Shown here: positions 10,591 through 59,445 of the stretch, piece by piece
Layout: each line of letters starts with the position of its first letter
How positions within the stretch are numbered: position 1 is the first letter of the stretch
From: Eledone cirrhosa
Taxonomy: Eukaryota
Reading direction: 5' to 3'
Length of the DNA stretch: 64,000 nt
NCBI GenBank assembly: GCA_964016885.1
Contig: OZ024741.1
Span: forward strand, 319,734,001-319,798,000
The notes under the pieces: model-generated
The model's database searches: none
What the model was told of the DNA's origin: nothing
The model's input: only the letters and a program-made list of their open reading frames with translations
Translations under genes and position numbers: made by a program

Positions 10591-11139
10591 CGATTAATAG
10601 TAATTAGCTCTTTAATTGCCATAGAAAAGGCATTGAAACTGGAACATTAAATAGACGGCCTGCAAAGCAAATAATGGGTTCTACATGGAATGAAAAATAG
10701 GCATACATGTATAGAAAAGAAACAAAAGGAGAAATTTAAAGATATTTAATTTAAATATATCCAAAGGGAAGTAAAACAGATGTTGCCAGCGGTATAGAGA
10801 AATAGAATTATTTATGTATCTTGTCGGTCAGTAGATTTAAATTAACCTCGTAAGTTTACAGTTAAATATGGCTCCAAATACAACAGAAATAATGTAATTA
10901 CATCAGCTTGAGTTAATTATTTGTAATCAAACAGTAATTTCATACTTAATTGGTAATTATCAGTTTACAACAAATCTTTACACCTATTAATGTAATTATT
11001 TTAATTAGTCTAATAGTAGTCACTTAGGTTTATCTCTCTTAACCACTTACGAATGTATTATCACATACAGTTTCGGAGGATATCAACTATCTGATACTCA
11101 GAATCTATTCCGTTGACAATGACTTCACAATCACTTTGA

Positions 11140-11335
11140 CTGCCGGGGATTGTTCGGCCGCTTCCTCTTCGCACCGCTTGCCGTCGAGACCTTAGGCGTA
11201 CTTGGACCCCGCACTGCCGAGTTCCTACACACGATCGTAATGCCGTCGGTCCGTCTGAGGAAGGAGCCCGGCGAGGTCGGGTGGCTGTTGCAACGGGTGT
11301 CGCTGGCCCAGAGCCCAATAACCCTGCCCCTTCCC
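11140..11335 (+). pseudogene. CRE-like non-LTR retrotransposon C-terminal (RLE) fragment
   Basis: FAPLAVETLGVLGP..AEFL...EPGEVGWLLQRVSLA matches the F.P.AVETLG..GP...WL.QR.SLA pattern of CRE elements; GC-rich. Confidence 0.65.
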
Positions 11336-11384
11336 CCTCCTCATTCTTCCGTGACACTAGAGCCATTTCCTTTCCCTTCTTTTA

Positions 11385-11424
<40 letters not shown>

Positions 11425-11426
<2 letters not shown>

Positions 11427-11790
11427 GAAGTTATATTTAATTTGTTGGGATACAACAAGCACATATTTTTATAACTGATATAAAGCACTCAACAAATTAT
11501 TGGAGTAAAAATACAATATATTAACAAATGGAAACTATATTTAAAAAACCATATTTATTTCATTATACATATTTCAAGGACACCAAAGCAAATTATGGTG
11601 CGGTTTCATCAGATAAAATATAATATAGATCAGTTTAATAAACAAATATTGACATACCCTTCAAGAATGCGACCATGTCGGTTGCAAGCTCCCGGATAGT
11701 GGGGTTACTAATTTTGCTTTAGTGTCCTTGAAATATGTATAATGAAATAAATATGGTTTTATAAATATAGTTTCCATTTGTTAATATATT
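11425..11790. mobile_element. Rearranged PLE pseudo-LTR relic with inverted arms and a minus-strand hammerhead (11551-11627)
   Basis: 11517-11595 is the reverse complement of 11712-11790; both resemble 28810-28885; 11425-11500 resembles 24902-24975; flanked by (TA)n. Confidence 0.75.
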
Positions 11791-14396: not shown

Positions 14397-14473
14397 ATAA
14401 ATTAACGGAGCCATAGACTCTCGTTATTCCCTGTCAATAATGTGCTCAAAGGAAAGGAATCCCGAGCTCTTTA

Positions 14474-14826
14474 AAATACAATATGTTGAAAAGGTAACAC
14501 ACTAGACAGAGATAGTGCGCCATCAATAAAACAGGGAAAATCACAATATGTTGAGTTGTCTGGAATGTATAGTCTTGCACGCGCTGATGAACCATAGGCT
14601 ATTCCATTTCAGTCAACAACTTCCTGGCGAAACAGATCTCTTTGGATTTGTAGGCATGTTATATAGTTATAGAGGTGCGTATATACATTTTAATTTATAT
14701 TTTTAATTATTGTGTGTCTACCCTGCCTTCCATAGATTATAGACTCCATACACTGGTGGTTTTCCCTGTTTTATTAATGGCGCACTATCTCTCTCTAGTG
14801 TGTTACCTTTTCAACATATTGTATTA
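14474..14826 (+). mobile_element. Pseudo-LTR relic with ~70-bp inverted arms and a degenerate hammerhead
   Basis: 14474-14543 is the reverse complement of 14757-14826; CTGATGA at 14584, GAAA at 14629. Confidence 0.6.
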
Positions 14827-15200
14827 TATATATATATGAACTTTTTCTCTATTTGCTAAACCTTGATTATATATGTTCTGGCTCGTTAATTTATTAACCT
14901 GCCATAGAACCACATTGGCATACGGTTGGATAATATATGTGTCCCTATATGAATTTTTGCACGTAGGAAAACATACTTTATTAATATTAATCTCCCCTAA
15001 GGTCGAGATAACATTTTGGTCGTTTTAACTGCTGCTATTTCTAGTGGCAGGACATTGACTTTTCCGCCCTTGCCTTCTATCTTTACACACGGCACTAGAC
15101 AAGATTGTTTCTTTATCATACACTCTCACCCGGGAACAGTTCTGTATGGCGCCAGTTCGTGATTTGAACTCGGGAATTTTATATTCTCTGAGCGAGAAGA

Positions 15201-15284
15201 ACCCTCTGATGAGAGTCTCCTTCTCAATGGTGGTTCGCATGGATTATCCATTTATTTTGAGACTTGAAACCGCGCGGTAAGGGT
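15201..15284 (+). ncRNA. Type I hammerhead ribozyme, canonical core
   Basis: ACCCU-CUGAUGA-GAGUCUC...GAGACUU-GAAA-CCGCGCGG-UA-AGGGU; all stems pair, palindromic stem III, GUA triplet. Confidence 0.9.
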
Positions 15285-15352
15285 AAATATAGTAGGTACA
15301 GTAAACTTTTTAAAATTTATTTTAGAACTTTTTCTCTATTTGCTAAACCTTG

Positions 15353-15458
<106 letters not shown>

Positions 15459-15469
15459 GTTGCATGTTG

Positions 15470-15650
15470 TGTTGCGTGTTGTGTTGAGCAAAACACTTCA
15501 TTTCACGTTGCTGCAGTATACGCAGCTGAAAATAAGTACCAGCTATACCTGGGGTCCTATCCAGAGGCATGTCTTGTACTCTCAGTCGCTTCACGCCATG
15601 AAACCGGGATAAGCACCGGTCAAATGAGCCTTCTGGCTTAAGACAGACTT
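15470..15650 (+). mobile_element. Second SINE family, body fragment
   Basis: ttgagcaaaacacttcatttcacgttgct matches the reverse complement of 22038-22068; gaaaccgggataagcaccgg motif. Confidence 0.55.
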
Positions 15651-15653
15651 TAG

Positions 15654-15715
<62 letters not shown>

Positions 15716-15743
15716 TTTCTATTCGATAAGCTTCGTCTCTTAA

Positions 15744-15824
<81 letters not shown>

Positions 15825-15923
15825 AGATTCTCTTAGAGTTGTCTGGAATGTATAGTCTTGCACGCGCTGATTATCGCTAAATATTGATGTTTATTTGGTT
15901 ATCAATATTAATATTATTGGGCA

Positions 15924-16050
15924 CCCACTGAAGAATTATAAGAGCCCACTTGAATAAGTATCTGTTGATCTTATACAAGCTTCTACATAAATTGGTATAA
16001 TTTCACCCAACTTGTAGAAATCTTATAGTGAAACGAGACGTCCGTCTGGG
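15924..16050 (+). ncRNA. Type I hammerhead ribozyme
   Basis: CCCA-CUGAAGA-AUUAUAAGA...UCUUAUAGU-GAAA-CGAGACGUCCG-UC-UGGG; GUC triplet. Confidence 0.85.
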
Positions 16051-16623
16051 AAGAGATATATTCGATATGTCTCATATGAAATGATACAGCCAATTTTCCA
16101 CACAATACAATTAGTTAGCACCCCGAACGTTTAATTAGGAATATACTCAGGTATTTCCTAATGTTTGTTGAGTGAGTTGGAATTTGGCCGGAGTATCGCT
16201 ATTAGCTTTCTCCGATTATGTATTTATATATTTACTCTTGGAGCAACAGATATGAACTTTCCCGATATAATGTATGACTCTTTGTTTATTTTTTTTATAT
16301 GAATATTGATTGTTTGTTCTTGTATCTCATTCTGTTATTTTGCCCGAGAAAATATCTGTGTGTCATCAAGCGATGCGTACAACATATGGTTATTTTTTCA
16401 TATCTAATTGAGTTCTAGCACGTGGCTTGAATTCTTTTCAGAATTCATTGACCTGCGCATGTATTGTTTTTTGGCGGTAATCTCCTTCCTCCTATTTTCG
16501 AGACAGTGTGAGATTTTCTTTAGAACTGCTGGACTAACAACCTAGCAGCTCCCCCAAGCACTGATGGTGATTATTGCTAAATATTGATGTTGATATGGTT
16601 ATCAATATTAATATTATTGGGCA

Positions 16624-16750
16624 CCCACTGAAGAATTATAAGAGCCCACTTGTATAAATATCTGTTGATCTTATACAAGCTTCTACATAAACTGGTATAA
16701 TTTCACCCAACTTGTAGAAATCTTGTAGTGAAACGAGACGTCCGTCTGGG
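16624..16750 (+). ncRNA. Type I hammerhead ribozyme, tandem copy
   Basis: Same as 15924-16050; one stem II change gives a G-U pair. Confidence 0.85.
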
Positions 16751-16915
16751 AAGGGATATATTTGATATATCTCATATGAAATGATACAGCCAATTTTCCA
16801 CACAATACAATTAGTTAGCACCCCGAACGTTTAATTAGGAATATACTCAGGTATTTCCTAATGTTTGTCGAGTGAGTTGGAATTTGGCCGGAGTACCGCT
16901 ATTAGCTTTCTCCGA

Positions 16916-17008
<93 letters not shown>

Positions 17009-19190: not shown

Positions 19191-19273
<83 letters not shown>

Positions 19274-19278
<5 letters not shown>

Positions 19279-19602
19279 GAATATAAATACAAATGCAAAA
19301 GATATTGTTGACAATTAGTCTTTTACCTTAAATTTATTTGAATATCCTTAATTATCGAGATAATATCTCTTCTTCGGAGGGAAGTAAAGGGGTTAATCCA
19401 GTCTTCTAATTAGCTTGCCAAATCATGCTGACAGGAAATGGTATAGAGATTCCATTCTATCCCTAATGTCAAAGATTGAGGGTTAGATGGATAAAGAGTT
19501 GTCTCCCTTTAAAAGGGGTTTTGTACATGTATGTTTAAGTGTGTGGGAGAATACGTGAATGCGTAAGTATGCGTGTTTGTGTCTTTGTGTGTTTGTGTGT
19601 GT

Positions 19603-19643
<41 letters not shown>

Positions 19644-19751
19644 TGTGAGAGGATATGTCTATATGTAAATGTGGGTGTTAGATGCTCTATCATGTTAAGA
19701 CTGGTCTTTGTGTGTATATGTGTGTGTGTGAGAGAGAATAAGTGGAGGTGT

Positions 19752-19826
<75 letters not shown>

Positions 19827-20279
19827 AGGGTTGTGTGTAAGTGTGGGGCTAGGTGCTCTATCATGTTAAAAATTGGGTGTTGAGTTCTAGTCTATTATTG
19901 ATTGGTGGTTGTGTTTTGTCTATAATCAGTGCTTCCTTAATTCTAAGATTGCCGAGGTTTCTTTCCTTAGCTTCTACCCTAACTGTTATGTTTTTGTCGG
20001 TGTTTTTGCATTTCACTAGGTGTTTCTTAAGAAACACCTAGAATTAAGGAAGCACTTATTATAGACAAAACACAACCACCAATCAATAATAGACTAGAAC
20101 TCAACACCCAATTTTTAACATGATAGAGCACCTAGCCCCACACTTACACCCCCTCTCACACACACACGCTTACACCTCCACTTATTCTCTCTCACACACA
20201 GGCATACACACACAAAGACCAGTCTTAACATGATAGAGCATCTAGCACCCACATTTACATATAGACATATCCTCTCACA

Positions 20280-20349
<70 letters not shown>

Positions 20350-20650
20350 AACACGCATACTTACGCCTTCACGTATTCTCCCACACACTTAAACATACAT
20401 GTACAAAACCCTTTTTAAAGGGAGACAACTCTTTATCCACCCAACCTTCAATCTTTGACATTAGGGATAGAATGGAATCTCTATACCATTTCCTGTCAGC
20501 ATGACTTCGCAAGCTAATTAGAAGACTGGATTAACCCCTTTACTTCCCTCCGAAGAAGAGATATCTTGAAAATTAAGGATATTCAAATAAATTTAAGGTA
20601 AAAGACTAATTGTCAACAATATCTTTTGCATTTGTATTTATATTCTATAT
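19274..20650. mobile_element. Fold-back (head-to-head) 5'-truncated PLE: GIY-YIG C-terminus plus pLTR in both arms
   Basis: Arms 19274-19945 and 20038-20650 are reverse complements. Minus strand 20025-19861 reads KHLVKCKNTDKNITVRVEAKERNLGNLRIKEALIIDKTQPPINNRLELNTQFLT*. Confidence 0.8.
20547..20578 (+). ncRNA. Minimal hammerhead, U4C core variant (mirror copy 19346-19380, minus strand)
   Basis: CCU-CCGAAGA-AGAGAUAUCUU-GAAA-AU-UA-AGG. Confidence 0.55.
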
Positions 20651-20731
20651 CTATACCTGCACTGTCTTGGCCTTCCAACTCCAAACGTTTATACCTCATT
20701 ACGCAATGCTTCAAGTGAACTACAACTTCCT

Positions 20732-24904: not shown

Positions 24905-24984
24905 AAAGTTCTATTTAAAATTGTTGGGATACAACAAGTAAATATTTTTATAACTGATATAAAGCAATCGACAATTACTTAAGA

Positions 24985-26920
24985 AGTATTAAGGATAATA
25001 TTGAAAACTTAGAGAAAACAGAGAAAATTCTAGTGAAGTCGGACAAAACTAATAATCTTTATGGAATACAAAAGGACATTTATAACAACCTTATATTGAA
25101 GGAACTAAGGAAAAAGTACAAGGTAGCAAATAAGGACGAACTTGAAAAACTGAATACAGATGCATCTTGTATAATGCATGAATTAGACATTGAGAATAAA
25201 ACACAACCCTTCATGCCTAGGAAACCTAAGATCAATATGAAGGATCACAAAAGAAACTTTGAAAATGATTTACCAGTCAGATTAATTGCACCATCTAAAT
25301 CTGACCTGGGCAAACTTAGCAAAAATATTCTAGACAGAGTAATACAACAAATTAAAAACTTACCTAATTTATCTTACTTAAAATTATGGAAAGAGACTAG
25401 TGAGGTTATCGATTGGTTTAAGGAAATTAAATATAACTATAATAATAAGTTTATTCAGCTGGATATTGCTAACTACTATTCATCTATCACTCCTAATCTA
25501 CTGAATAAGGCACTAAATTACGCATTTAAACATACAGACCTAACTAGCAATGAAATGCACATTATATTATCGGCAAGGAAAACATTGATAGAATTTAATA
25601 ACCAACTCTGGACTAGGGCAGATAGAAATAATAATTTCGACATAACTATGGGATCATCAGACTCAGCTTAGGTAACGGACCTTGTAGGCCTATTTATAAT
25701 TAATTCGCTACATAGAAAAATACCAGGTGTAACCGGAGGCTTATATCGTGATGACATGCTTTTACTTATAGAAAATAATAGCTGTGAACTAAATAGAAAA
25801 AGAAAACAAATTATACAATTTTTTAATTACCTTAATCTAAAAGTAGAAATAGAGAATAACCATAAAATAGTCAATTTTCTTGATGTAACACTATATCTCA
25901 ACACATGTCTTCATTATCCATTTCACAAACTAAATGAGAACTTGAATTATGTTAATTTTAACTCTAATCACCCCAGATCTGTTAAAAATACTATAGTGAA
26001 CTCTGTTCAAGAACGAATTTCAAGAATTTCATCTAATAAAAATATATTTGATGAAAAAGCGCAGTATTACAACGAAGCGTTAGGTAGAGCTGGATATAGA
26101 AATAAAATTAAATACATCGATAATAATAATAATAAGCAAACTAACCAAAGTAATAACAATTTTAATTATGGTAACAACTTTAACAACTATAATAGAAAAC
26201 ATTACAATAATTCCAAAAGCCGAAAAAGAAATAGAACTAGAAATATATTATGGTTTGCTCCCCCCTTTCTCCCTAAATATTAAAACCCCTATTGCTAAAC
26301 TATTCTTTAAAGCTCTTGACAAACGCTTCCCTAGAACACATAAATATTACTCAATTTTTAATAGACACACTATAAAATTAACTTACTCGTCCACCAAAAT
26401 TTTAGCACAAAATATTAATAGAATTAATAATAGAAACTTAAAACCTAACCAAAATACCAATAATAACCCAAGCAATATTCAATTGAATAACTGTAACTGT
26501 AGAAATAAATCTAACTGTCCGTTAAATAACAACTGCTGAGCTAAAAATGTAGTGTACAATTGTAATGTTAAAACTAATTTAAATTCATTTCACTATGTTG
26601 GTTCCACCTCTACAGAATTTAAATTTCGCTTCAATAATCATAAAAATTCTTTCACAGATCCAAACAAAAAATCTTCAACTTCGCTATCTAGCCTACTATG
26701 GGACCTAAAACGAGATAATGTTAAATATTCGATGACTTGGAATATTATTTCATAAGCTACTCCTTTTAATTCCTCTTCAGAAAATTGTGATCTTTGTATT
26801 GAAGAAATATTCTTTATATTAAAGTCGAAAAATTCCCTTAATTTAAGGAATAATTTATTCAGTTGCTGCAGACATAGATTGAACTCAACGTTTAAATATA
26901 AATATAAATTTAAAATGTAG
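24985..26920 (+). pseudogene. PLE reverse transcriptase plus GIY-YIG endonuclease, with stops and frameshifts
   Basis: KDHK..F....VRLIAPSKSDLGKLSK; FIQLDIANYYSSI; FDITMGSSDSA; YRDDML; VNFLDVTL; SNHP; ILWFAPPFS; CNCRNKSNCPL; VVY...YVGST..FKFRFNNHK; CDLC...CRH. Confidence 0.9.
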
Positions 26921-28776: not shown

Positions 28777-28852
28777 ATATTGTATTTTGTCTGATGAAGG
28801 CATACCATAATTTAATTTGGTATCCCTGAAATATGTATAATGAAATAAATAT
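28777..28852 (+). ncRNA. Type I minimal hammerhead in the PLE pLTR
   Basis: UAUUUUGU-CUGAUGA-AGGCAUACC...GGUAUCCCU-GAAA-UAUGUA-UA-AUGAAAUA; same strand as the PLE ORF. Confidence 0.85.
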
Positions 28853-31984: not shown

Positions 31985-32540
31985 CTTCGGAGTTAAGAAT
32001 AATGTAAATAAATTAGTAGAACGAAAATGACAGAGGTTATTAAAATCAATAATAATTAAATATATACATACACGGATCCATATACGTACATACACGTGCA
32101 TACGCGAAAACACCCGCCATGCATGCATATACATGCACATACACATAAACGCGCACACATACATAAACCAGCGTGACACCTGTACCCGCACACATATGAA
32201 CGTATACACCAAATACACATAAAAAAATATATGTGTATGTGTGTATATATATATAATTATATAAACGTATATAAATATACTCACATAAATACGTATATAA
32301 CGCACGCAGTCAACCCGATTCCTACAATTACAGTTAGTACTAGCTGCAAGGTTGGTAATTCAGCTAAATTTGAAGCAGTGATGTTATGTGCAAGGTTAGG
32401 GGTTAGAGTAAGAAATTTTAATGGTATTTCTATTAACAATTTTATTAAATTTATGTGCTGAGGGGAAATGCTTCTTAATAAGGGAGAGAAAGATCTTAGC
32501 TAATGGTGTGGCCACCTCCATATTATATGGTGGGTTATAC

Positions 32541-50724: not shown

Positions 50725-52013
50725 AAAAATAGTTCCGAACGTGGAATTTTGGCGATGTTTGCAAGAAGAAAATAATTCTGTTCTGAGATTAATAGAGTTT
50801 TGACAGTTAATTATATAAACAATTTCTACAATACACAATTTACAGAATCTTGATAAAGCCGTATTTCAGTATGCAGGTGCTTTCGAAATCGTTCTCCAAG
50901 ATATTGAATAGTCTATATTGTTGTCTTTTAAATCCCAGATTAGATGTGAAAGTGAAGTAGAAGATTTTTTATCAGATCTCCTAAATGTATGATTATGGTT
51001 ATTCCAGCGTTCTTTAAATTTTGGTGAAGTGGCACCAACATAGTTAAATATTTTGTCGCTAGTTTTAACTGTGCATTTATAAACTATGTTTTTGTCTAAA
51101 CAATTATTTTGTAACGGGCAGTTTGATTTGATTCTACAGTTACATTTACTAGAGTTATTGTTGTTCAGAATGGTACCATTATTCTGAATATTGTTGTTAG
51201 AAATATTATTGCTATTTTGGTTAGTTTCGTTAGGGTTTAAATTTAAGTTTCTATTATTAATTCTATTTATATTTTGCGCTATGTTCATAGTATAGTAGCA
51301 GAGTAGGATAGTTTTATAGTGTGTCTGTTAAAAATAGAGTGGTATCTGTGCGCTTTAGGAAAACATTTATCTAGTGCTTTAAAGAATAGCTTTGCTAAAG
51401 GTGTTTTAACGCTTAATGAGAATGGGGGAGAGTACCAAATAATATTTCTAGTTCTAGTTTTTTTGTTTGGTTTAGTGTCTAAGTTAATACTAGGATGATA
51501 TGTCGTGTTATTGTTATCTATGTATTTAATTCTATTTGAGTATCCTGCTCTTTGTAAAGCTTCATTATAATATTCAGCCTTATCATCAAAAATATTTTTA
51601 TTAGTGGAGATGCGTGAAATCCGTTGTTGGACGCTATTGACAATAGCTTCTAGGATGATTAGAATTGAAACTTACATAATTCAGATTTTCGTTAATTTTA
51701 TGGAAAGGATAGTAAAGACCTGTGCTAAGGTTTAACGTTACATCTAAGAAGTTAACGATTTTGTAGTTATTCTCTATTTCTAACTTAAGATTGTAGTTGT
51801 TGAAAAATTGTATTATGGATTTTCTTTTCCTATTAATTTCACTATTGCTATGGTTTTCAGTTAAAAGTAACATATCGTCACGATATAAACCTCCAGTGAT
51901 CTCGGGTATTTTCCTATGCAGTACATTATTAATAAATAATCCAACGAGGGCTGTAAGTTGCGCTGAATTAGATGATCCCATAGTGATATAAAAATTGTTT
52001 TTTCTGTCGGCTC

Positions 52014-57210: not shown

Positions 57211-57724
57211 GTATAGGATTATCCAAGATGTAGTGATGGTTAATTACTACACTGGATATGGTTGACGTACGGTAAGAGGTTACTCTACGAGTTATGTAAG
57301 AATTGTTCAAGAAACTTAGTTCCTGATCCTTCAGTATTCCGGAGTGTATATAAAGAATGAATAATAACAGGTAGATATCTTAATCAAAATGTTATGGTAG
57401 GGGTTTTATTAGTTACTTTTGGAGAGATGCGTAGATAGTTGAGGTCGGAATTATTTATTGCCCCAGAGGGCAGGTTCATAAATGTTGAGAGGGAGGTAGG
57501 TCAAAGGTGAGAGAGAGAGAGAGTGTAATGGATGTAGAGAGAGATATATAGGTAGAGAGGGGACAGATAAATATGTGTGGTGAGTGAACTTTTGGTTTTG
57601 TAGTAGTATTCTAGGAGTTGTACGGAGTTACCATGTATAGTGATAAGCAGTGTATTGTCTTGTAGTGTGGGGGGAAGAGAAGGTTGTTAGCTAGAAAGTG
57701 GTGTTGTAGTTACGGGTTCGAATG

Positions 57725-59445
57725 TTAAGTTATTTTATAGTGAGAGAATTTAGCTTTTAGTTTGTGGTTGCAGTATAATGATCGTTCAATTCTATCGTTA
57801 AGTAGTTTGTTTTTGGATTTTAGTATGTAAAATAGCTCAAGGTTACATAACCTGCAGTACTTCAAACCACTCCGATATGCATTTGCGCTGGAAAGTATAT
57901 CCCATTTTAAGGTGAACTGTTGGTTGTGTTCACGGAGTTGCCAGGTCTTGTTGGCGAGCGTGGTCACAAAACGGTGATTCTGATGTTTGATTGAGAATCG
58001 ATGACGGTACCAGCGAGATTTAAACGATGTGGTGGTAGATCCGATATAATACCATTTCTGGTCGTCCGATTCAACCGTGCATTGGTAAACAATGTTGGAC
58101 TTTAGGCATTCATTCTGCAATGGACATCTTTCAGGTAGATGGCAGTTACATGCTTTGTTGTGGGTAGCGGGTATACCATGGATAGGTTGTGATAGCGGTA
58201 CAGGTGGGTTGTGCAATACCCGTCTCCCATTTAGTGGTTGGGAGGCAGATATTGCGTTCTGCCCATCTGTTACTAAAATGTTTTGTTTTGTAGAGTTGTT
58301 TAATTGCCTTAAGTTAAGTTTTTTTATGTATGCTTCAAGGTTTGGTGCCGTGGAGTATGATAGTCTAATAGTTTTGGAGTTCAGAATTTTGCTGTACTTA
58401 TGGGAACTAGGGAAGTGTTTATTGATTAATTTAAAGAATGAAAGAGATAGTTTTGTACTAATCGAGGCATTAAAAATAGGATTATACCAGATATACTTTC
58501 TACAACGTGATTTATTTGGTGGTGATCTTCTATTATTAGTATGTCTGGTAGTACAGTGTGTGTGTGCTTGTGTTTTAGTCCCCCGGTTACGTATACCTTG
58601 ATTACGTGTAGAGCTATGCGTGTTGTGGAAATTACTATCGATGTATTCTATTGTATCCCGGTGGTCAGCATTCCTTAATGCATTATTGTAGTATTCAGCA
58701 TGTTCGCTAAAAATATCAGAGTTAGACGATAGGCGAGAGATTCTAAGAGAAATACTCCGGGGAACTGATTTGATCATGGAGAGTGGGTGGTTAGAGTTAA
58801 AGTCAATATACGTAAGGTTCTCATTTACCTTGTGGAAGGGTCGTATCTGTCCGGTATTTAAATTAAGAGTTACGTCCAGAAAGTTTACTACCTTAAGATT
58901 GTATTCGTATGTTATTTTTAGACCCAGTTCACTAAAAGATTTTCTAATATTTTTCCGTAGCCTTTCAAGATTTTGGTTATTCAAGTTATTAACTAATAAG
59001 AGCCCGTCATCTCTGTATATCCCCCCCCCCCCTGTAGATTACTAAATCCACTATGTAATATGTGGGCTATGTAAATTCCTACGAGATCCGTGACCTCCGC
59101 CGAGTCGTTGGAACCCATGGTAATATCGAAATATGTGGGTCTGTCCTTACGTTCCCAGTAGCAGTTATCGAACTTAATAATGGCTTTTCTAGCCTCGAGA
59201 ATAATGTTAATTTCGTCCTCCGTTAGGTCGGAATTGGCCTTAGCAAACGATAGGGCCTTACGTAAAGTGCTTGGTGAGATGGAAGAGTAGTATTCGTCTA
59301 TGTCAAATTGTATAAACTTAGATTTATTCTTATTCTTAACATTATTAAACCAGCGAATTGCTTCGCTAGTGTTGCCCCATAATTTAATTTCAATTTTCTT
59401 TTTCACTTGAGTTATTACTCTGTCAAGTATATGTTTACTAATTTA
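57725..59445 (-). pseudogene. Naiad-type PLE RT plus GIY-YIG, single frameshift at a homopolymer
   Basis: FIQFDIDEYYSSI, FDITMGSNDSAE..LVG, YRDDGL just after the C12 run, VNFLDVTL, SNHP, CNCHLPERCPL, IVY..YIGST..FKSRWYRH, CRLC..CNH. Confidence 0.92.

Follow-up and report, generated by a model that had tools for sequence, protein, structure and literature searches.

Two hammerhead motifs lie in tandem at 15868 to 16922 of the window, the whole 64,000-nt stretch of Eledone cirrhosa DNA analyzed here. Do they mark a retrozyme, a non-coding unit that PLE machinery mobilizes and that gives rise to a circular RNA, as the original prediction proposed, and what do the copies of such a unit record of how it moves?

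Layout and predicted folding of the insertion

A descriptor scan returned the same two hammerheads, exactly 700 nt apart and with predicted cuts after 16046 and 16746, that the original prediction had named (Table 1). Each motif has a 4-bp stem I (CCCA/UGGG), a CUGAAGA core (starting at 15928 and 16628, respectively), a 9-bp stem II that closes a 77-nt two-hairpin insert and is followed by GAAA, and a 3-bp stem III with the palindrome GACGUC; the cut triplet is GUC. Hammerhead 2 carries one private A>G change, which leaves a U-G pair in stem II. The first GUC (16040 to 16042) was rejected as a cut site, as no stem I follows it. A search of Rfam gave no hammerhead family at gathering score or at an E value of up to 10, the matches being (TA)n noise.

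TABLE 1 Features of the insertion, its flanks, and the candidate partner element
Feature	Position	Strand	Remarks
Whole insertion	15868..16922	+	Subfamily A; 700-nt non-coding unit, repeated 1.5 times head-to-tail
Upstream partial unit, 5'-truncated	15868..16222	+	First "direct repeat" of the original prediction; 13/355 mismatches versus 16568-16922
Complete terminal unit	16223..16922	+	Register taken from the fixed 3' end of the family
Predicted 700-nt monomer	16047..16746	+	Putative double-cleavage product and candidate circle, from the two predicted sites
Internal AT-rich tract	16216..16235	+	Equivalent in the terminal unit is the likely RT start and (TA)n joint
Hammerhead 1, type I	15924..16050	+	Stem I 15924-27/16047-50; CUGAAGA 15928-34; stem II 15935-43/16021-29; GAAA 16030-33; stem III 16033-35/16043-45; cut predicted after 16046
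Hammerhead 2, type I	16624..16750	+	Layout of hammerhead 1, +700; cut predicted after 16746; 5' ends of the family cluster at the position of 16747
UGGGC (15918-22) and GCCCA (15944-48)	15918..15948	+	Paired in the MFE structure
5' flanking (TA)n	15751..15821	.	46 nt between tract and element
36-nt piece at the 5' junction	15836..15871	+	Identical to 14553-14588; overlaps the element by TGAT
3' flanking (TA)n target	16921..16976	.	Abuts the 3' end of the element directly
Young Hydra-like PLE	L220:1501-3639; relatives L214-L243	-	Hammerhead-like motif near the 3' end, core often CAGAAGA

The statement that no sense-strand ORF of 60 aa or more lies between the hammerheads held for the entire element, in which no plus-strand stop-free frame of at least 60 aa was found; with the unit read as a circle, the longest ATG ORFs are 39 aa (+) and 30 aa (-). 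No PLE protein similarity was detected within 14801 to 16930 (best E value, 0.097). An autonomous PLE was rejected as an identity for the element, as no RT and GIY-YIG ORF lies between the repeats.

The direct repeats, which had been put at about 354 bp, are present (15868 to 16222 and 16568 to 16922; 355 bp, ungapped, offset by exactly 700, 13 mismatches), but they are not LTR-like. Because longer copies elsewhere in the genome continue upstream into the unit itself, the repeats are, judging from those copies, the terminal redundancy of a 1.5-unit insertion and not LTRs, and their length here is an accident of the truncation point. The predicted (TA)n flanks were likewise recovered in part: the 3' tract abuts the element, but the 5' tract is set apart from it. 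TSDs are unreadable inside (TA)n. The 36-nt piece at the 5' junction is likely a locally templated filler, to judge from its identity with the upstream segment. That segment belongs to the interior of a MITE-like element (14472 to 14828) with 73-bp terminal inverted repeats that are 95% alike.

The predicted fold of the circular monomer has -178 kcal/mol (z of -4.6 against 40 shuffles; -4.1 for the antisense strand). The hammerhead fold is not the MFE structure. It lies 2.2 to 4.3 kcal/mol above the predicted minimum, because UGGGC pairs with GCCCA, and for hammerhead 2, within 166 nt of context, stem II has a probability of about 0.01. In the constrained hammerhead fold neither of the two segments is paired. 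They could pair as a pseudoknot between loops I and II in the active fold, or else as a hairpin that competes with it; they are invariant in all three subfamilies of the family (A, B, and C, see below) and thus give no covariation either way. Stem III does not fold alone and forms a duplex of -14.7 kcal/mol with a second copy, in agreement with the dimer cleavage model set out in PMC4209133.

Several other elements were observed in the window. A second, unrelated retrozyme-like family occupies 14828 to 15345 (+), with a 487-nt unit, a type I hammerhead (core at 15206), and a predicted cut after 15279; it has 5121 first-look candidates, a fixed 3' end, partial tandems that reach 1.8 units, and, in many cases, an inversion at the 5' end. 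Older Hydra-like PLE fragments (24970 to 26890, 50737 to 51993, 57716 to 59442, and 32306 to 32536) are 35 to 60% identical to the protein of the young PLE family described below. Three small, mutually similar hammerhead-like motifs with a stem I of 6 to 8 bp, at 28791 (+), 54732 (+), and 11612 (-), probably derive from the pLTRs of a further PLE family. An inverted duplication of 1.4 kb, nearly perfect, spans 19269 to 20655; its center (19864 to 20120) matches a PLE ORF C terminus on both strands, as is typical of a PLE tandem/inverted insertion. Short frames at 11061 to 11440 have an apparent likeness to non-LTR retrotransposons at the end that encodes the restriction-like endonuclease.

Copies, 5' ends, and the template

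A unique local duplication, which would have counted against the original prediction, is not what the genome shows. Instead, the exact hammerhead-core pattern has 726 matches in the genome, against 0 for the reversed control, and the motif is thus far from chance. Similarity searches of the 3.0-Gb genome gave 3852 first-look candidates for the element (40 scored) and, when the 3' portion of the subfamily B unit was searched, 1260. Judged by these matches, the family comprises many hundreds to thousands of dispersed copies; 100 of the 726 matches were listed, and our locus samples were picked by similarity or pattern and are not a census. As to whether the unit occurs alone, in multimers, or attached to a PLE ORF, it was found both alone and in multimers, with no fusion to a PLE ORF in any fetched locus. 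It is also present in contigs from three runs of one sample, whose run type is unrecorded and which have no bearing on RNA, circles, or copy number.

The 3' end of the family is fixed: in 111 of 113 distinct loci it falls at or beyond unit column 690. This fixed end is situated in the AT-rich tract, some 176 nt 3' of the predicted cut. At least (TA)4 occurs within 35 nt of this end in 110/113 loci and near the 5' end in 83/113, and the 3' junctions track the AT-rich tract for differing lengths before passing into pure (TA)n. The 5' ends vary. The majority of copies do not form arrays but are scattered and truncated, ranging from sub-monomers to 1.5-mers; long copies reach 2.4 and 3.5 head-to-tail units, the latter being the largest array among the matches listed, in an assembly that may collapse long arrays. 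Two or more intact cores occur in 13/113 loci, and four in one. A few copies are inverted in part, and the position of the 3' end does not depend on how long the array is.

Subfamily B, with a 707-nt unit, shares about 84% identity with subfamily A, to which the copy in the window belongs. A smaller, intermediate subfamily C (loci L143, L178, and L180 to L183) is 85 to 90% identical to A, with mixed A/B letters. A lineage with a 4-nt deletion in loop III (L002 to L005, L007, and others) accounts for 22/191 read-through sites and keeps the three stem III pairs, and the deletion is common to both units wherever a locus has two. Two older, unrelated downstream fragments at locus L177 were left out of the 113-locus counts and of the minority-variant and A/B structure counts given below.

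We placed 5' ends relative to the predicted cut in 105 distinct loci picked solely by sequence downstream of it (100 listed of 131 matches, plus the best 40 of a similarity search). In the first lap, 5/73 copies that reach the site end exactly on the first base after the cut (the background rate of truncation predicts 0.33; P, 2.6e-5); in the second lap, 1/5 do. Ends within -2 to +10 number 28/96 in the first lap (2.9 expected) and 7/11 in the second (0.33 expected). Most of the clustered ends fall at ATATAT, a TA-like microhomology 8 to 9 nt downstream of the cut. Microhomology alone is insufficient to explain the cluster, because the heptamer GATATAT near the cut draws 23/96 ends and the identical heptamer 9 nt further 3' only 4 of about 100. 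The six copies that end on the exact base share just a single T with the target there. Run-off at the cut followed by trimming would account for the cluster; trimming must be assumed because most of the ends lie 8 to 9 nt downstream.

A second set of 93 loci, picked by the whole hammerhead and mostly of subfamily B (a small overlap was kept), has 5/20 second-lap ends within -2 to +12 (0.73 expected), with 0/20 on the exact site and the nearest at -1, -3, and +7. A first-lap replication in subfamily B gave just 3 matches, as the pattern matched a rare variant. In the neighboring 487-nt family, 3/29 ends lie within 2 nt of the predicted cut, a count that we set aside because the GUA triplet of that family resembles (TA)n. 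As far as genomic copies can tell, the pile-up of 5' ends is likely a record of self-cleavage in vivo. Since 68/105 copies run through the first site, continuous templates are also common.

What those templates were is indicated by variants shared within loci. Units of one locus are closer to each other than to units of other loci at 34/42 loci (P, 2e-5), a test in which the two L177 fragments were kept and count against the result. Of the minority variants found in terminal units, 81/221 are seen again in the upstream unit of the same locus in subfamily A (27 loci, 15.8 expected) and 56/114 in subfamily B (11 loci, 13.9 expected). The effect of array position is nearly nil, with 2/453 columns at p<0.01 in A and 0/685 in B. 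GTC followed directly by T is kept at 182/191 read-through sites (partly deduplicated), none of them with added bases. A monomer bottleneck would most simply account for the sharing of variants within loci; end-to-end template jumping or gene conversion of a source array would also give it. The copy in the window adds nothing to this argument, because 0/10 of its minority variants are common to both repeats; it derives from the commonest template type and has drifted since insertion.

We regard a covalent circle as a fairly probable template. The chief alternative, mobilization by a PLE without such a circle, is rather unlikely in our view and would draw on linear templates, either multimeric transcripts of tandem source loci that have been cleaved in part or cleaved monomers that keep their two ends close while the RT jumps from the 5' to the 3' end. 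The stops at the cut do need linear cleaved templates at least sometimes, an 876-nt copy would be a 1.5-mer transcript cut at the first hammerhead only, and a lizard PLE mainly used unprocessed multi-copy RNA in vitro (PMC11167929). However, purely linear copying could only shorten arrays, and it would transmit position-specific variants, of which the columns above give no clear sign, full variant sets being common to both units. The read-through junctions without added bases also argue against it, as does the limit of 3.5 units on array length, with the reservations about listed matches and collapsed arrays made above.

RNA structure, a candidate PLE partner, and a proposed mechanism

About 85/700 columns differ between subfamilies A and B, including 0/31 columns of the core, stem I, and stem III (3.8 expected; P, 0.018), whereas the free position N7 varies. 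Stem II shows one compensatory change (A-U>G-C) and one wobble-to-Watson-Crick change, and an inner helix shows a compensatory U-A>C-G change; the row for inner helix P2a, which is out of register, was left out of this comparison. Among 165 confident pairs of the circular fold, 4 are compensatory (null, 0.87; P, 0.01) and 13 are broken (null, 27; P, 0.0005), in a fold taken from an A copy, which somewhat favors the result. These patterns indicate that RNA structure has been under selection between A and B.

They also weigh against the idea that the hammerhead is a non-cleaving relic, its copy ends arising from RT stalling and TA microhomology and its tandems from DNA duplication. This idea is in keeping with an active fold that is not the MFE structure, with the position of most clustered ends at ATATAT, and with the poor in vitro cleavage reported for many PLE-type hammerheads in PMC4209133. 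We nevertheless consider it very improbable: the core is invariant and the stems are compensated between subfamilies, the 4-nt deletion variant preserves all three stem III pairs, six ends fall on the exact base with a single shared T, the control heptamer draws far fewer ends, and the 3' end is fixed regardless of array length.

Mobilization of a non-coding unit by PLE machinery, a part of the original prediction, is supported by insertion marks of the PLE type, namely, an internal fixed 3' end, a microsatellite target, 5' truncation, and inversions. Autonomous PLEs co-occur with the family, the genome having 10,595 GIY-YIG candidates; some of the PLE ORFs are Neptune-like, a clade name given on the basis of motifs. 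One young PLE family has 85,976 first-look candidates, 96 to 100% protein identity among the 130 scored, and 713-aa open frames with RWR, DKT, CxCx5C, CxxC, and CxH motifs. The 713-aa ORF had no match in Pfam and was assigned by its motifs and by 21% identity to an RVT_1-bearing PLE ORF. The motifs agree with those of the Hydra clade, which is noted for (TA)n insertion (PMC8557442).

The 3' UTRs of the young family are long and rich in AT. Beyond a hammerhead-like motif, the element terminates in an AT tract that adjoins (TA)n; it too occurs head-to-tail, and its end geometry is that of the retrozyme. At 33/240 loci (34 rows, distance of up to 200 nt; the count includes a second "Hydra" PLE end labeled by eye), the same (TA)n tract holds both a Hydra-like PLE and the retrozyme. 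Hydra-like 3' ends near the retrozyme lie on its 5' side in the same orientation in 14 cases and on its 3' side in the opposite orientation in 20, an arrangement that shows no bias in orientation and fits a shared (TA)n target; a fused Hydra-retrozyme chimera was rejected.

No sequence similarity to the unit was detected in 30 Hydra-like loci, nor in 30 GIY-YIG loci and 20 long-ORF PLE loci save L106, together a tiny sample (80 loci) of more than 10,000 GIY-YIG candidates. L106 was rejected as a PLE pLTR homolog, as it is a copy of subfamily B. Patterns with a short stem II and the same stem III gave 0 and 6 matches; none of the six was accepted as a PLE version, five being read as deleted family copies and one as a chance junction. 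A PLE match was present in the flank of 44/301 fetched loci, in none of them at a fixed joined position. The young, (TA)n-targeting Hydra-like PLE is the best candidate partner. That the copies are instead pLTR or 3' UTR remnants of an autonomous PLE, and not an independent non-autonomous element, is also very improbable. In favor of this reading, PLE pLTR hammerheads likewise combine a long stem II with a short stem I and a palindromic stem III (PMC4209133), and Hydra-like PLEs show long AT-rich 3' UTRs and the same end geometry. Against it, the sequence upstream of the hammerhead leads back into the 3' end of the unit itself, as many as 3.5 times, 14801 to 16930 is without detected PLE protein similarity, and neither the flank matches nor the short-stem-II patterns revealed a joined PLE or a PLE version.

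We consider it quite probable that the element is a dispersed non-coding retrozyme of 700 nt. Its RNA likely undergoes self-cleavage, and a PLE enzyme likely copies it into (TA)n, probably from a circular monomer. In the mechanism that we propose, (i) copies with at least two hammerheads would be transcribed; (ii) the RNA would be cut after GUC, likely as a double hammerhead via the palindromic stem III; (iii) some monomers would, with reasonable likelihood, close into circles; (iv) the PLE endonuclease/RT would nick (TA)n and, as the junctions suggest, prime at the AT-rich tract inside the unit, some 176 nt 3' of the cut; and (v) copying would either stop at the cut-site position, which matches the observed copies of 167 to 176 nt and 867 to 876 nt, or pass it, for up to 3.5 units. 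Such read-through copying would thus produce the head-to-tail "direct repeats."

A more far-reaching reading, which we offer tentatively, is that the copies are a fossil record of three things together: a germ line cut at the predicted base, reverse transcription of both linear and circular RNA from one internal priming site, and a Hydra-clade PLE that acts in trans without shared sequence, recognizing structure or the AT tract only. If true, this would be sequence-level evidence for hammerhead action in vivo in PLE-type retrotransposition, where the function of the hammerhead has been termed unclear (Craig et al., PMC8557442). The class of element is known, and the copy in the window is thus ordinary in itself. 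The family offers access to the question of what the hammerhead does, as its insertion ends mark the predicted cut and its array-shared variants point to a monomer template. For the 5'-end and variant-sharing tests an assembly is enough, and they can be applied to all families of PLEs or retrozymes. A young candidate helper with long open frames in the same genome makes trans-mobilization testable.

Comparison with known systems

The element has the following features of animal non-LTR retrozymes: an intact type I core in each unit, at least two hammerheads head-to-tail (in the window copy, strictly 1.5 units), no coding content, many copies, mobility, no true LTRs, and co-occurring autonomous PLEs. 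We assign it to this known class as a new member, one with insertion evidence of unusual clarity; neither the family nor 5'-end pile-ups at hammerhead sites were found described in the literature consulted, and paper supplements and Repbase/Dfam may list the family.

Metazoan non-LTR retrozymes (PMC7229834) are alike in being non-coding, with a GC content below 50%, head-to-tail type I hammerheads, and no LTR-type structure, and in having a strongly self-paired predicted circle and PLEs in the same genome. They differ in four respects. (i) Their units measure about 170 to 400 nt in the species tested there, whereas the unit here, at 700 nt, is roughly double the length of those animal retrozyme circles that experiments have demonstrated. 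(ii) Their RNA circles were demonstrated, whereas the circle here is a candidate. (iii) Stem II here has a 77-nt insert. (iv) They form arrays, whereas the copies here are mostly dispersed.

Vertebrate and insect retrozymes (bioRxiv 10.64898/2026.07.22.740005) span units of 51 to 972 bp, a range into which 700 fits, with few repeats and co-occurring PLEs. Homology to pLTRs was reported for 24/57 Xenopus families, whereas none was found here among 80 PLE loci, and 1/9 Xenopus retrozyme dimers cleaved in vitro (bioRxiv 2026.07.22.740005). The preprint prefers an origin in which a PLE terminus is amplified locally in tandem, whereas the junctions here suggest that the element inserted anew many times; in the text consulted, the positions of 5' ends are not related to the cut site.

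The pLTR hammerheads of PLEs (PMC4209133) share the long helix II, the 4-bp helix I, and a palindromic helix III suited to dimer cleavage. In contrast to them, the element here has no ORF, positions 10.1-11.1 pair as A-U and not G-C, and helix II combines 9 bp with a large insert. The same paper, from 2014, put forward a circular template to explain insertions longer than one unit. Hydra-clade PLEs (PMC8557442) show the same (TA)n targeting, partial tandems, 5' truncation, and inversions. MRC1, from the same study, is non-autonomous and head-to-tail, as here; elements of its type resemble their partner at the 3' end, whereas no such similarity to the Hydra-like family was detected in our comparison. 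For a lizard PLE, internal initiation and AT-rich targeting were reported, cleavage was dispensable for insertion in vitro, and RNA reads ending at the cut were absent (Frangieh et al., PMC11167929).

Plant LTR retrozymes, as described in PMC7229834 and the 2026 preprint, are alike on the surface, with direct repeats of about 350 bp, two hammerheads, and a circle of 600 to 1000 nt. An assignment to the plant type was rejected on the type I topology, an interior that belongs to the repeating unit, and the variable repeat length. Plant LTR retrozymes have type III hammerheads, true LTRs, PBS/PPT, and 4-bp TSDs, whereas the hammerheads here are of type I and the repeat ranges from none to several units.
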